A program made the translations under genes and the position numbers. DNA of 64,000 bases from a phage. The stretch lies in the sequence record PZ445436.1; one strand, given 5' to 3'. Below the pieces are notes generated by a model that saw only the letters and a list, made by a program, of their open reading frames with translations, was not told the DNA's origin and did no database searches. Below are positions 1,976 through 53,195 of the stretch, one piece after another (position 1 is the stretch's first letter; every line of letters starts with the position of its first letter).

Positions 1976-2308
1976 TTATTTTACTACTTTCCAATGCTGC
2001 ATGTCAAGTTTACCAACTTTTTTCATCTTCTCAATTAAGCGTTCGGCACGTTGGCGAGCTGTAACATAATGCCATTCGCCTAATTCATTTTGTTCAATTT
2101 TTCCAACGATTACTGTATTCAATTCATAAATCCAACCAGTAAAGAAATTATGAACTTGAATTGTAAAGGTGAAATCTGTTCCCATACCTTCTGTTGTTTC
2201 TACTTCAATAATATCACCTTCAACTGCCATTAAGAACCACATAGTTTCATCATATTTACCATTGAAGCATTTAGTTTTAACTGCAGCGTTCAGATTAATC
2301 GTTTTCAT
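1976..2308 (-). CDS. hypothetical protein
   Basis: 110-aa ORF; early-type promoter upstream. Confidence 0.55.
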   Translation of the reverse strand: MKTINLNAAVKTKCFNGKYDETMWFLMAVEGDIIEVETTEGMGTDFTFTIQVHNFFTGWIYELNTVIVGKIEQNELGEWHYVTARQRAERLIEKMKKVGKLDMQHWKVVK

Positions 2309-31892: not shown

Positions 31893-32165
31893 TTATTTGT
31901 TCGTATACATCTCTAGATATCGATATACACCCTCAAAACCCTCGTTGAATTCGTCGATGAGGGTTTTCTTATCTTCTTGAGTTAATTCAGAAACAATTTT
32001 ACGGAATGAATTCTGATTTAATTTTCTACCTTCATGCGTTACTCCAATCTCATTCAGAAATGCAATAAAATTAGCACGATTTTCAACAATATCTTCTCTG
32101 GAAAATTTAATCAAAATAGACGCAACAGTAATAATTTCACGCACAACTTCAACAGCATTATTCAT
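31893..32165 (-). CDS. asiA: anti-sigma70 factor AsiA
   Basis: 90 aa from ATG 32163-32165 (…VREIITVASILIKFSREDIVENRANFIAF…); early promoter at 32209-32237 shows longer track ORF is an artefact. Confidence 0.9.
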   Translation of the reverse strand: MNNAVEVVREIITVASILIKFSREDIVENRANFIAFLNEIGVTHEGRKLNQNSFRKIVSELTQEDKKTLIDEFNEGFEGVYRYLEMYTNK

Positions 32166-33834: not shown

Positions 33835-34470
33835 TCACAGTTCAGATGCTACAGTGATTACTGCTTCAATGTTTTCTGCCGAACGTTTAATGTCAAGATA
33901 CACATTACCGTTTTTAGCGATTTTACATGACATTCCGATGTCAGTAAATTTCTGAATATGATGTTCCATCATTTTGTATCCAAAAATTCGCATGTTTCCA
34001 TTGTTGTTAATTTCAAAATTACGAATTCCGTGAGTGCGTTTTTCTAAAATAGCGAGATAGTTACTGCGATAAGTTTCAACCTTTTTAAGAACAAATCCAT
34101 TTTCATCTAAAAGTTTTAACATGAGGTCTTTATCTTCTTCCATATCGGAAGTAATCTCACGAGCTTTACGAGTTGCTCGTTTTTTCAGCAGTTCCGGAGC
34201 ATTTTCTTGTGCGTATAAAGTTGCTGCATTTGAAATAATATCCTGAGCTTCACCTGTAATGATTAATCCATCACCAGATTTCTCCACCAAGCCTTTTTTA
34301 ATCAATACCCCAATATTACTATTAACTACTGCGTTACCTAAATCTGGATGCACCTCACGAACTTCTGCAGCTGTAATGAAATCTTTCTTAGCAATAGTAA
34401 TTAAAATCGCAGCAGTTTTTTCATTCAGAACATCGTTAGAAGCTTTGATGATGTAAGTTACTTTAGACAT
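33835..34470 (-). CDS. motA: MotA middle-transcription activator
   Basis: 211 aa, matches T4 MotA as recalled; early promoter and upstream terminator. Confidence 0.9.
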   Translation of the reverse strand: MSKVTYIIKASNDVLNEKTAAILITIAKKDFITAAEVREVHPDLGNAVVNSNIGVLIKKGLVEKSGDGLIITGEAQDIISNAATLYAQENAPELLKKRATRKAREITSDMEEDKDLMLKLLDENGFVLKKVETYRSNYLAILEKRTHGIRNFEINNNGNMRIFGYKMMEHHIQKFTDIGMSCKIAKNGNVYLDIKRSAENIEAVITVASEL

Positions 34471-49418: not shown

Positions 49419-50738
49419 TCACACATAAAATACATCATAACGACCACGAGTTACACCAACATAAAGAAGTTGTTGGGCCAATTCAGCATCTGCATAATGA
49501 ATACAAGGCGTATAAATGAAAGCACGGTCTACAGACATACCCTGAGCTTTATGGAATGTTGATGCAGGAAGTGCTTTCACTTTACTAAACTGTGATTTAG
49601 CATCCCAAAAATCACTCCATGGAGCTTTTCCGCCTTTGTTCCAATTTTTATAAGTTTCTGCCGTTTTACCTAAAAATAGGTTAAACTTATACAATTCTTC
49701 ATCAGATGAAATTATTTTAATCTTTTCACGATAATATTCATCATCGCCGTAAGTTTCTACTGTTAAATCCCAATGACGAATTAAGTATTCTCCAGGAACA
49801 CCACGGGCTTTAACAAACGTTGATGTATACTCTGCTTCTATAATACGAACTAATTGTCCGTTATTAAAAATAATTTCTGACACAGGCTTTCCATCAATTT
49901 TATATGTTTTAATTAATGGTTCCTGCATTACAATAATTTCACCTACAATAAAATCTTTATCAGTTTCAAAAATCTTTTTACGAATAATGCTATTTAACTT
50001 GTCAACAGATTTATTCGTAAATGCCATTACGCGATTTTCAAACAAATCATCTAGAGATTTGACGATTGAAAAATAATTTACCATAAAATCGCGTAAAGCG
50101 GTATCACCTGTAAATCCACGTACTCCATGCCCGTCAACAACTTTATCATAAATCCACTTACCGTTGCGAACATCAGTAGCTACATCAATAATAGGAGCAT
50201 TACTGCGTTTAACTTCAGTAAGTTCACACTGATAAAAATCTTTGTGTGTAAAGAATGGACTGATATAAGCAGTATTTTCTCCTGGATCAACAGGTCTAAT
50301 TTGCTTATTATCCCCTATTCCAATTATAGTACACCAAGGTGGAATAGTTGAAAGCAGAATTTTAAATAGCTTTCTATCATACATTGACACTTCGTCGCAG
50401 ATTAATACCCTGCATTTAGCTAAATCTGGTACTTCCTTCTGTTCAAAAAGAACGTTTTCTTCATACGTAACTGGGTTAATTTTAAGAATACTGTGAATAG
50501 TACTCGCTTCTTTCCCCGACAGTTTTGAAAGAATCTTTTTAGCTGCATGTGTAGGAGCTGCCAAAATGATACCAGTTTCGCCTGTTGATATTAAAGCTTC
50601 AATGATGAACTTAGTAAGAGTAGTCTTACCGGTACCAGCAGGTCCATTAATAGTTACATGATGTTTCTTTTCTTTAATAGCCTTCATAACAATGTTAAAG
50701 GCATTTTTCTGGCCTTCGGTCAAATCATCAAATGTCAT
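49419..50738 (-). CDS. dda: Dda DNA helicase (SF1B)
   Basis: 439 aa; Walker A GPAGTGKT; T4 Dda length. Confidence 0.9.
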   Translation of the reverse strand: MTFDDLTEGQKNAFNIVMKAIKEKKHHVTINGPAGTGKTTLTKFIIEALISTGETGIILAAPTHAAKKILSKLSGKEASTIHSILKINPVTYEENVLFEQKEVPDLAKCRVLICDEVSMYDRKLFKILLSTIPPWCTIIGIGDNKQIRPVDPGENTAYISPFFTHKDFYQCELTEVKRSNAPIIDVATDVRNGKWIYDKVVDGHGVRGFTGDTALRDFMVNYFSIVKSLDDLFENRVMAFTNKSVDKLNSIIRKKIFETDKDFIVGEIIVMQEPLIKTYKIDGKPVSEIIFNNGQLVRIIEAEYTSTFVKARGVPGEYLIRHWDLTVETYGDDEYYREKIKIISSDEELYKFNLFLGKTAETYKNWNKGGKAPWSDFWDAKSQFSKVKALPASTFHKAQGMSVDRAFIYTPCIHYADAELAQQLLYVGVTRGRYDVFYV

Positions 50739-51046
50739 CGGAAAGTCCCTGCAATTGGAATACTAACAATACGCCCAGTATCTAGAATTCGTTGATATAA
50801 TCTTTGTGTATCTACATCAGGCTTAACATGTTTAACTTCTATTTTATTAAACCAAAATTTACGTGGAGTCTCAACTAATCTTGGAATTCCCTTACCTAAA
50901 GCTAGTTGATACTGCTCTTTAAGAGTGGTAAATACTTTGTCAGCAATATTCCATTCAAAAAATACAGCAGGACGATGTTCATCAAGCGGAACTGGCGCCG
51001 TAAATCCGTCTTTGTCTCGGTAAACTATCGCATATACATAAACCAT
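50735..51046 (-). CDS. hypothetical protein (dda.1-like)
   Basis: 103-aa ORF, ATGA overlap. Confidence 0.5.
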   Translation of the reverse strand: MVYVYAIVYRDKDGFTAPVPLDEHRPAVFFEWNIADKVFTTLKEQYQLALGKGIPRLVETPRKFWFNKIEVKHVKPDVDTQRLYQRILDTGRIVSIPIAGTFR

Positions 51047-51047
51047 A

Positions 51048-51794
51048 TTATCCTCGGATAAGTTTAAAAATTGAACAATTTAGCGGGTATCCTCTTTTTA
51101 ATTTGAGTTTATCAATAAATGATAAGTTTTGAAACCGCTCTACACCTTGAATAATTTTATCACACATATCATATTGCATTTCTGCTTCTGACAACTTTTT
51201 CACAGTTTTCCAATCCGAGCCTTTAAGAAGAACGTTCAATTTAACAACTTCAGCGCCTTCTGCTATACGAGAACCATCAATACGAGCTTTAAGTGCTATA
51301 ATTCTTAGCTTAATGTCAGAGGTCTGTTTTGATTTAGAAAGCTGAGAAATGTGTTCAATTCGGTTTTCACGTTTTTTCTGTATAGCTTTAATTTGATTAT
51401 AAGTCTTTTTGATTTTAGCCCATTTCTTTTCATCTAAATTTAGTTTATGAACTTTTTTCGCAGATGAACGACCAATTCGCAAAGCAAATAAATCACGCTT
51501 TTCAATCAACTCTTCTAAAGTATAATCAGAACGAAATGTATTATACTTTTTCTTTACTGCAATAACATTCCCTTTAATGTATCCAACGTTATTATCAAAA
51601 CGTTCTAATGATAATTTCTCTCCTTCAATACGATTATCAAAAGGTTCTCCCGAGTAAGCGCAAACTTTTTGATCTAAAATGTTCTTAATGTAATTGAAGT
51701 CTAAGTTAAAATCTTTAGAACGTCTTTTTGCAGATGCCTGGGTATGCTCTAGACGACGTTTAATTTTACGAATTTGGTTATTAGACAGCTTCAT
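51048..51794 (-). CDS. basic protein, Srd-like by position and size
   Basis: 248 aa between dda.1 and modA; early promoter upstream; a short HNH-like patch is present but lacks the zinc ligands. Confidence 0.4.
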   Translation of the reverse strand: MKLSNNQIRKIKRRLEHTQASAKRRSKDFNLDFNYIKNILDQKVCAYSGEPFDNRIEGEKLSLERFDNNVGYIKGNVIAVKKKYNTFRSDYTLEELIEKRDLFALRIGRSSAKKVHKLNLDEKKWAKIKKTYNQIKAIQKKRENRIEHISQLSKSKQTSDIKLRIIALKARIDGSRIAEGAEVVKLNVLLKGSDWKTVKKLSEAEMQYDMCDKIIQGVERFQNLSFIDKLKLKRGYPLNCSIFKLIRG

Positions 51795-51830
51795 ATTTTT
51801 CTCACATCTTACGGACGGTTAACTACTTAT

Positions 51831-51860
51831 ACTATAACATTTTTACTTTAACTTGTAAAC
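51831..51860 (-). promoter_or_regulatory. T4 early-type promoter for the srd-like gene
   Basis: GTTTAC, 18 nt, TGTTATAGT. Confidence 0.6.
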
Positions 51861-51874
51861 AACTTTATGAAAAA

Positions 51875-51899
51875 TGCTTTAAAACTTTCATGGTATAAT
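51875..51899 (+). promoter_or_regulatory. MotA-box middle-promoter-like motif on plus strand, antisense to modA
   Basis: AAAATGCTTTA, 12-nt spacer, TGGTATAAT; nearest plus-strand target is the antisense of modA. Confidence 0.4.
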
Positions 51900-51916
51900 G
51901 AATCTAAGTCCTTCCA

Positions 51917-52519
51917 TTATAGATTAAATCCTTCAAAATCAAGAGTATAGATAGTGTATGTTGAATACTTTTTATACTCATATCTATCCGCAATTCTAAA
52001 TACACTTCCAGCTGGTATCATTACTTCCTGTTCATCTGAAACTAATTCCATATTACGATAACGATGACTATCCGGAAACTTAAAGTTTGGATTGTATTCT
52101 TTACAGCGTAGAGCTTTTATAGCATACTCCTGGAAATTGAATACCATAGGAGCTTTGAATTCAAAAATAACTTGTGTGTTATATTCTAAACCAGAAGCAA
52201 AATGTAGAGCTATATTTTTATCATATGAAGCTGATACTACTTTATCAAATGTAATAATATCAATTCCTTGATTTAATACTTGTTTAGTCTCAGCTGGAAC
52301 ACCTCTCCAAAGAGGTTTATCGTTTGGTTCCAAACGAGATTTGATTATTTCATTTAACCAAGTATGGTCATCTGGTTTATTAGTAATACAATGAATTAAA
52401 AGTTCAATTTCAGATAAATTAAACCCTTCAGAAAGTAATTCTTCACGAATAGAAGCACGCACCGATGCATCCATTGATTTTATTTTAAAATCTTTTAGTT
52501 GCATTACTGAGTATTTCAT
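51917..52519 (-). CDS. modA: ADP-ribosyltransferase ModA
   Basis: 200 aa; ART triad-like R (LWRG), S-x-S (SAS), E-x-E (EQEVMIP). Confidence 0.8.
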   Translation of the reverse strand: MKYSVMQLKDFKIKSMDASVRASIREELLSEGFNLSEIELLIHCITNKPDDHTWLNEIIKSRLEPNDKPLWRGVPAETKQVLNQGIDIITFDKVVSASYDKNIALHFASGLEYNTQVIFEFKAPMVFNFQEYAIKALRCKEYNPNFKFPDSHRYRNMELVSDEQEVMIPAGSVFRIADRYEYKKYSTYTIYTLDFEGFNL

Positions 52520-53139
52520 TCAACTACCTCAATATCATAAACTTTAAATGTTCCAAATGAATCGTGTAATTTTTCTTTTGAAATAGAAGTTATTCTATAC
52601 TTTCCAATTGGAATCATCCATTCCTGTTCACGCACAATCATCATTAAGTTATCAGTACGCTCTGAATCTAATCCATCAGTATCTTCATACGTGTACTTAA
52701 ACTCAGTATTAGGAGAAGAAAGTATAATATCGCTGATATGGTCAGAATAATTAAAAGCTTTATTAGTTTTTAAGCGAAGTATTATTTTAGTAAAATATTC
52801 AGCGTAAGAAAAAGAACATGCTGTGAGCAAACTAGTAGTAAATGAATCTACTCTATTCGTTGAAAACACTTCTCCAACTTGTAAATCTTTAATAAGTTCT
52901 TCTGTTGATTTTGATATACCACGATATAACTGATAAGGCGATTTAGTTAAATGCTTTTTAATGATTTTATTCAATTGCCGATGAAGAGCTTCATTCTTTT
53001 TAGCTTCCATACATTGCCAAAGAACAGACTGCTCAAAATCAGTAAATTTTTCACAGACCTTTTTATACATATCATATTGAAAATCGACGCTTTCAGCTTT
53101 TATAGATAACTGTTCAACATCTGCAAGATTAATAATCAT
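52516..53139 (-). CDS. modB: ADP-ribosyltransferase ModB
   Basis: 207 aa; R (LYRG), STS-like (FTTS), ExE (EQEWMIP); early promoter and GGAGG SD. Confidence 0.8.
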   Translation of the reverse strand: MIINLADVEQLSIKAESVDFQYDMYKKVCEKFTDFEQSVLWQCMEAKKNEALHRQLNKIIKKHLTKSPYQLYRGISKSTEELIKDLQVGEVFSTNRVDSFTTSLLTACSFSYAEYFTKIILRLKTNKAFNYSDHISDIILSSPNTEFKYTYEDTDGLDSERTDNLMMIVREQEWMIPIGKYRITSISKEKLHDSFGTFKVYDIEVVE

Positions 53140-53165
53140 GATAGCCTCCGTATACTTCAGAAGCT

Positions 53166-53195
53166 ATCATATCATCGTTAGAAAGGAAAGTAAAC
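53166..53195 (-). promoter_or_regulatory. T4 early-type promoter for modB
   Basis: GTTTAC, 18 nt, TGATATGAT. Confidence 0.55.

Follow-up and report, generated by a model that had tools for sequence, protein, structure and literature searches.

We found that the intergenic region between srd and modA (51795-51916, 122 nt) in a 64,000-nt stretch of phage DNA (PZ445436.1; the whole stretch is called the window) holds, on its plus strand, a sequence with the architecture of a T4 middle promoter. The sequence points into modA, and all the genes surrounding it lie on the minus strand. We consider it likely that this is a functional promoter. Our complete reading, to which we give a probability of about 0.5, is that it is a MotA/AsiA-dependent promoter whose antisense transcription would damp modA and modB after the early phase. 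Because the promoter is conserved across many genera of T4-like phages, it is probably a real switch, and the sequence comparisons suggest that the switch is probably an uncatalogued one. Initiation in vivo, dependence on MotA, the extent of the transcript and its regulatory effect are inferred.

The part of the window around the promoter is 98.8% identical to and collinear with T4, and window positions there equal AF158101.6 positions plus 40,009. ModA and ModB were not recognized by any Pfam family. MotA and AsiA, the expected activator and co-activator, are both encoded within the 64-kb window. The srd gene has an early promoter on the minus strand, confirming the suggestion that the two promoters stand back to back; their predicted starts are divergent and ~82 bp apart. 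Judged by its position, the srd early promoter is probably Pe11.5 of an earlier study (PMC6024815). The coordinates of the features are collected in Table 1.

Table 1. Features of the srd-modA region and related loci. Positions are those of the window unless a locus is named; variable columns refer to the alignment of 20 Tequatrovirus sequences.
Feature	Position	Strand	Variable columns	Remark
asiA, co-activator	~31893-32165	-		Coordinates approximate, from peptide matches
motA, activator expected at the box	33835-34470	-		ORF; homologs with Pfam PF09158 and PF09114
dda	49419-50738	-		ORF
dda.1	50735-51046	-		ORF
srd	51048-51794	-		ORF; downstream of the intergenic region
srd early promoter, TTTACA-17 nt-TGT-TATAGT	51859-51831	-		TTTACA 51859-51854, TATAGT 51836-51831
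Adjacent srd leader and early promoter			34/86 (40%)	With indels
MotA box to modA stop	51870-51916		3/47	
MotA box AAATGCTTTA	51872-51881	+	0/10	Core TGCTTTA 51875-51881; centre ~30 nt upstream of the predicted start
Spacer, 12 nt	51882-51893	+	2/12 (51885 C>A, 51890 A>G)	Last bases TGG of the extended -10; TG at 51891-51892
-10 hexamer TATAAT	51894-51899	+	0/6	Direct reading; the 12-nt spacer is within the 12 +/- 1 bp rule
Discriminator GAATCT and predicted start	51900-51907	+		Predicted start A51906 or A51907
Predicted non-coding transcript antisense to modA, possibly modB	51906-53139	+		Placed by geometry only, to a putative 3' limit
modA, RNA polymerase alpha ADP-ribosyltransferase	51917-52519	-		ORF; T4 modA region 98.8% identical
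modB, ADP-ribosyltransferase	52516-53139	-		ORF; second possible antisense target
Flanking coding sequence			13-19%	
Outgroup terminated RNAs	L032 ~1378-1547; L082; L070 3440-3575	- (L032, L070)		

The plus strand of the intergenic region reads aaaaaTGCTTTAaaactttcaTGgTATAATgaatctAAg. In this sequence, AAATGCTTTA matches the MotA box consensus (a/t)(a/t)(a/t)TGCTTtA (PMC2988021) at 10/10 positions. The predicted start was placed by the usual 7-8 nt distance to the -10, which puts it 10 nt before the modA stop codon. The sequence in T4 itself is identical, with the -10 at AF158101.6 11885-11890 and +1 at ~11897. The original prediction had located the motif at 51875-51899. The architecture is as it described, but AAAATGCTTTA begins at 51871 (in an A-run from 51870) and TGG had been counted twice. 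There is no sigma70 -35: at 16-18 nt spacing upstream of TATAAT 51894-51899, 0-1 of 6 positions match TTGACA. A sigma70 promoter scan did not return the plus-strand site 51872-51899 among its hits.

Several other signals lie close to the promoter. A 6-bp inverted repeat, ATGAAA 51867-51872 and TTTCAT 51886-51891, flanks the MotA box; Mosigvirus has a different inverted repeat, CATAAAA...TTTTATG, at the same place, and most other genera showed no such repeat. The minus strand has a perfect TATAAT at 51917-51922, which overlaps the modA stop codon (cTATAATgg) and faces srd. It is probably incidental, since the sequence upstream of it scores only 17.75 against the middle-promoter consensus. Farther away, the modB leader (53137-53171, minus strand) contains a 14-bp hairpin, TATGATAGCTTCTGAAGTATACGGAGGCTATCATG, in which the first transcribed bases pair with the Shine-Dalgarno GGAGG and with the AUG. 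The hairpin also overlaps the early promoter at 53194-53166, in its -10. It looks like an inbuilt translational damping of a toxic gene, or a target of RegB (GGAG).

How often such a site would arise in this DNA depends on how strictly it is defined. The loose pattern TGCTTNA-N11-13-TANNNT was found 10 times in the window against 4.8 expected, so its ~two-fold enrichment is by itself weak evidence. When scored with a weighted consensus, 51872-51899 was the only perfect site (22/22) on both strands of the 64-kb window (128 kb scanned), and it was one of only two plus-strand window sites scoring above 19.5. It outranks every sense-strand middle promoter in the window. The gene 31 and gene 56 middle promoters, which the site had been said to match in quality, are real sense-strand sites at ~3638 and ~56559, respectively; they score 21.0 and 21.25, compared with 22 for the plus-strand site.

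We then compared the region among relatives. In an alignment of 20 Tequatrovirus sequences (91-99% identity), the segment from the box to the modA stop was the most conserved of its neighbourhood; two of its three variable columns belong to the spacer, and the third immediately precedes the modA stop (Table 1). Because divergence within the genus is low, this conservation is suggestive, no more. Two side observations concern individual phages. In SA20RB, UFV-AREG1 and MLF4 (Tequatrovirus; L010, L012 and L021), srd measures 756 nt instead of 747 because 9 nt (plus strand, CATATTATG) are inserted close to its 5' end (window ~51786). In phage ELT1 (L014 921-1522), modA is annotated as two CDS, 921-1337 and 1358-1522, which suggests that the gene is disrupted; the boxes of the ELT1 antisense promoter are intact, with one A>G in the spacer.

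Conservation in relatives, which the original prediction had named as a check, was found well beyond the genus: the boxes are invariant in the 20 Tequatrovirus sequences and the motif is retained in many genera whose intergenic DNA is unalignable. BLAST alignment to Mosigvirus and Gaprivervirus ends at the srd leader, and the remaining intergenic DNA does not align. On the same strand, Mosigvirus carries AAATGCTTTA-13-TGT-TATAAT and Gaprivervirus carries AACGCTTTTA-12-TATAAT. Searching via Srd homologs, we found GCTT, a 12-13 nt spacer and TATAAT also in Dhakavirus, Karamvirus, Marfavirus, Gelderlandvirus and Jiaodavirus. Nine of the first ten genera sampled in GenBank had GCTT, a 12-14 nt gap and TATAAT in antisense orientation at the 3' end of the ADP-ribosyltransferase (ADPRT) gene. 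The survey was extended to 47 full-length Srd loci from IMG/VR, with a cut-off score of >= 19.5 of 21.5 on the antisense strand. A site reaching the cut-off and containing the GCTT core was present at 42/47 loci, each time at the ADPRT 3' end, and the same cut-off was reached by 16/940 (1.7%) of dinucleotide-shuffled regions. At all positive IMG/VR loci, the antisense site scored higher than any coding-strand site within 1.5 kb upstream of srd.

The pattern of conservation was examined in 32 distinct sequences from many lineages. All six positions of TATAAT are invariant, as are -6 G and -3 T, and +1 A and +3 G are found in 28/32 and 29/32 sequences, respectively. Conservation across genera extends into the beginning of the predicted transcript, which reads A-R-G-K-N-C-Y-T-T. 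The spacer sequence is free across genera, with its length held to 12-13 nt in enteric lineages. The positions -6 G, -3 T and +3 G are discriminator and start contacts of the polymerase, described in the literature on sigma region 1.2 and the core recognition element. Because the conserved positions sit at these contacts, a promoter is favoured over constraint from an RNA or a protein-coding sequence. As read from the alignments, an invariant -10 with invariant downstream positions and a free spacer of held length is the signature of a promoter. We regard this cross-genus conservation as strong evidence and as the decisive part of the case.

To which gene the element is tied can be judged from rearranged loci. 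The element follows the ADPRT gene, not srd: the Marfavirus locus has dmd between the two, and there the promoter is still found where the ADPRT gene ends. An intergenic region of just ~80 nt, filled by the element, precedes srd in Karamvirus, Gelderlandvirus and Jiaodavirus, and srd is without its own promoter in these genera. Aeromonas was absent from the host groups listed for ADPRT homologs outside the srd neighbourhood.

The element was also compared with the occurrence of its expected activator. It is absent from the three Krischvirus-type loci, and no MotA match was found on the Krischvirus-type contigs; RB49-type phages are reported to be without motA and middle promoters (PMC1524935). 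The motif-positive loci include 33 on genomes in which MotA was detected. MotA homologs were found by tblastn in the same groups, and in three cases (JIPh_Kp122, Shf125875 and PSD2002) in the same accession or phage. On these data, the distribution of the element tracks that of MotA with two exceptions, Muldoonvirus WSPA and PspYZU05. Serratia phage WSPA (L156) belongs to a MotA lineage and has ADPRT and srd-like genes, with no antisense MotA-type site; these genes are separated by 36 nt carrying an early-type promoter. Pseudomonas phage PspYZU05 has a copy with 14-nt spacing, yet no MotA was detected in it. Most enteric lineages are without the TGn extension (CGG-TATAAT), and by eye the -35 position of Karamvirus holds no usable hexamer, so an activator would be required in most enteric lineages. 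A different arrangement was seen in Erwinia phage Cronus (L155), in which the ADPRT and srd-like genes abut without an intergenic gap. A candidate antisense site there, GTTTGCTTCA-14-TATAAT-AGGGTCAAGGAG (score 20/21.5, ~2150-2225, minus strand), lies inside the srd-like coding sequence at ~codons 36-47, and may be an embedded copy of the promoter.

Copies outside the enteric phages differ in their surroundings. Acinetobacter phages and PspYZU05 (L070) have the core TGCT(T/G)TA-14-TATAAT-G(G/A)(T/A)TC. An intrinsic terminator follows after 120-165 nt, and the RNA so delimited does not overlap an ADPRT gene. The RNAs of the Acinetobacter phages and PspYZU05 share GGCGCT(T)CGCGC and ATTAGATGT(G)TTT, and had no Rfam match. 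The 14-nt spacing of these copies also fits a sigma70 -35 (TTGCTT or TTGCTG) at 16 nt. Each Acinetobacter phage genome has ~5 copies of the element. In Acinetobacter phage Minot, the neighbour of the promoter (L032 935-1378) is a Macro-domain gene (PF01661), not an ADPRT gene; it occupies the position that the ADPRT gene has in enteric phages, and its relatives are annotated as O-acetyl-ADP-ribose deacetylase. The outgroup copies may be a cassette-like relative that puts a similar core to a different use. They are a reminder that control of an ADPRT gene by antisense transcription is not necessarily the conserved function.

Downstream of the predicted start, we looked for a gene that the promoter could serve. 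The original prediction that no plus-strand ORF lies downstream holds for any ORF of note: no ATG-started ORF found within 400 nt of the start exceeds 15 aa, and in modA the longest ones on the plus strand have 35 aa (GTG) and 59 aa (TTG). No hidden small ORF was apparent, as nothing of the kind is conserved downstream of the promoter, and no tRNA or tRNA-like gene was found there. Rfam returned no family in the window region or in nine related loci. The orientation was likewise as described, with the promoter pointing into modA; because its start is 10 nt from the modA stop, the predicted transcript would be antisense to modA from its first nucleotides. No conserved terminator was found within 260 nt in any enteric lineage. 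Weak terminator-like hairpins occur in modA of the T4 type at 52301-52316 and 52320-52337; they could end an RNA of ~430 nt, although not convincingly. Folding of the first 440 nt of the predicted RNA was unremarkable (z = -2.1), and this value is not informative because the sequence codes on the other strand. The AT content downstream, 0.70-0.72, is in the normal range for the window, where the mean is 0.645 and the 95th percentile is 0.73.

The screens behind the catalogue of 58 T4 middle promoters reportedly targeted sense transcripts. The plus-strand promoter is absent from that catalogue, compiled in 2010 (Hinton 2010, PMC2988021), which has nothing between Pdda.1 (11,138) and P56/69 (16,813); the start predicted here is at ~11,897 in the same coordinates. 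The GenBank records examined, including AF158101.6 and M30001, show only CDS at this stretch and no promoter feature. The literature on T4 antisense transcripts that we consulted contained nothing relevant, and an earlier mention in older primary papers is possible. A T4 dRNA-seq preprint reports 150 start sites, 22 of them antisense. Middle promoters themselves are known; what is probably new is a middle promoter in antisense orientation without a gene to serve.

These observations are consistent with the following mechanism. MotA would bind AAATGCTTTA, and the AsiA-remodelled sigma70 holoenzyme would use TGG-TATAAT. Transcription would start at ~51906-51907 and run antisense into modA, perhaps also modB. 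Because the promoter needs early proteins, it would fire only after the ADP-ribosyltransferases have been made. The antisense transcription would then lower further synthesis of ModA and ModB at the early-to-middle switch, either by head-on collision with polymerases that started at the early promoter upstream of modB, or by pairing with the mod mRNA in its 3' part, to give an RNA duplex that would be cleaved or untranslated, or by both routes. Such an arrangement would form a feedback loop, in which ModA helps to convert the polymerase, the converted polymerase uses the promoter with MotA and AsiA, and ModA and ModB are thereby limited.

Previous studies provide the setting for such a loop. 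ModA and ModB are early proteins that are reported to be toxic or lethal to Escherichia coli when overproduced, and the modification of RNA polymerase alpha by ModA is complete by ~4 min (PMC3014915; PMC9697503). The alpha C-terminal domain is dispensable for middle promoters (PMC2988021), and the shutoff of early expression is not fully explained, with neither AsiA nor ModA accounting for it (Hinton 2010, PMC2988021). The extended -10 of T4 may let the promoter fire without MotA, which would blur the timing argument. A wider form of the proposal, in which the element is an ancient and conserved MotA-gated feedback switch of T4-type phages that ends modA/modB synthesis in the middle mode, is tentative; we regard it as possible rather than probable.

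The conserved promoter could also be real and have another role, as a barrier to early read-through from modB-modA into srd-dda.1-dda or as the source of a trans-acting small RNA. The conservation of the transcript's first nucleotides across genera would suit such a role, as would the discrete terminated 120-165 nt RNAs with shared motifs in PspYZU05 and the Acinetobacter phages. In addition, Karamvirus, Gelderlandvirus and Jiaodavirus have a promoterless srd directly downstream, and read-through into it would likewise be reduced by a convergent promoter. In T4, however, the start is just 10 nt away from the modA stop, which leaves no room for a separate RNA gene, and the enteric lineages have no terminator within 260 nt. 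Furthermore, the outgroup copies can be read as sigma70 -35/-10 promoters, and the Acinetobacter element is present in ~5 copies per genome. We therefore consider another role of the promoter rather unlikely. A role on the minus strand, or as a binding site only, seems improbable to us. Under this reading, the sequence would belong to the srd early promoter as an UP-like part, serve the modA mRNA at its 3' end, or act as a roadblock formed by MotA or polymerase. The reading draws on the MotA box, which relative to the srd early promoter lies at ~-51 to -57, a position typical of UP elements, and on the inverted repeats that bracket the box in T4 and Mosigvirus. Invariance, however, falls precisely on the -10 hexamer and the GCTT core; the spacing between them is constrained and the spacer sequence is free. 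The inverted repeat is not general among the genera, and neither strand has the shape of an intrinsic terminator. The UP-element and mRNA 3'-end candidates were rejected, as the element persists both where srd is promoterless and where dmd intervenes; its retention in Karamvirus, Gelderlandvirus and Jiaodavirus rules out that it is the upstream part of the srd early promoter.

Two further explanations concern replication and chance. A middle-type promoter without a gene downstream is also found at oriF and oriG, and the T4 origins are incompletely defined (PMC3016281), so the promoter might belong to an R-loop origin of that type and its transcript might prime the leading strand. The mapped origins are, however, oriA (near soc, several kb away), oriC, oriE, oriF and oriG, with none reported at ~11.9 kb (PMC3016281), and the DNA downstream is modA coding sequence whose AT content is merely mildly raised. 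An origin here is thus highly improbable. A chance match in AT-rich DNA, with no function, would agree with the modest enrichment of the loose pattern and with the absence of the site from the promoter catalogue. Against it stand the single perfect site in 128 kb, the 42/47 loci compared with 1.7% of shuffled regions, and the location of the motif in the most conserved segment of its neighbourhood. On the sequence evidence, chance is very unlikely, the least probable of the explanations considered.

The antisense middle promoter that we favour shares features with several known systems. Like the T4 middle promoters of gene 31 and gene 56 and PuvsX, it has a MotA box at 12 +/- 1 bp from the -10 and no -35. 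In T4 middle promoters the TGn extension is optional and the factors are phage-encoded, and both hold here. Each of the 58 catalogued middle promoters is named for the gene that it serves; the plus-strand promoter, by contrast, has no gene downstream, is directed against the early/middle coding strand and overlaps an early toxic gene at its 3' end. None of the catalogued promoters in the window comes as close to the consensus. Antisense transcription of T4 gene 32, reportedly described by Belin et al. in 1987 (cited in PMC2988021 and PMC3014915), is a precedent for antisense transcripts in T4. Lambda OOP and P22 sar are short, terminated cis-antisense RNAs made from constitutive host-type promoters in temperate phages. 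They resemble the present case in that a short promoter converges on a regulatory or toxic gene from the 3' side and the RNA is complementary to its target along its whole length, whereas here gating by phage early proteins is proposed and no terminator is evident. As at oriF and oriG, the promoter is of the middle type and its transcript, here a predicted one, is not an mRNA; in contrast to them, no origin maps here, and there is no distinct unwinding element as far as AT content, which alone was compared, can tell. The PeSL cassettes of T4-type phages, which Arbiol et al. are said to have described in 2010, consist of a promoter plus a stem-loop, with early promoters, and flank novel ORFs. 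The Acinetobacter-phage copies, with a promoter, a GC hairpin and a terminator at ~5 per genome, are similar to PeSLs; the T4 element differs from them in being single-copy, of the MotA type and tied to an ADPRT gene.

Sigma appropriation has T4 as its reference system, and for decades the T4 middle promoters have been listed as gene-activating devices. If our reading is true, the same middle-promoter machinery would also turn early genes off; in the wider form of the proposal, the element would be the first conserved cis-antisense control element in T4-type phages and one missing mechanism of early shutoff. As the -10 is intergenic, a single-site, codon-neutral mutation is possible to probe one shutoff mechanism. 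The element is also relevant to the cloning and engineering of modA and modB, and to the annotation of > 1000 T4-like genomes, in which it is unmarked.
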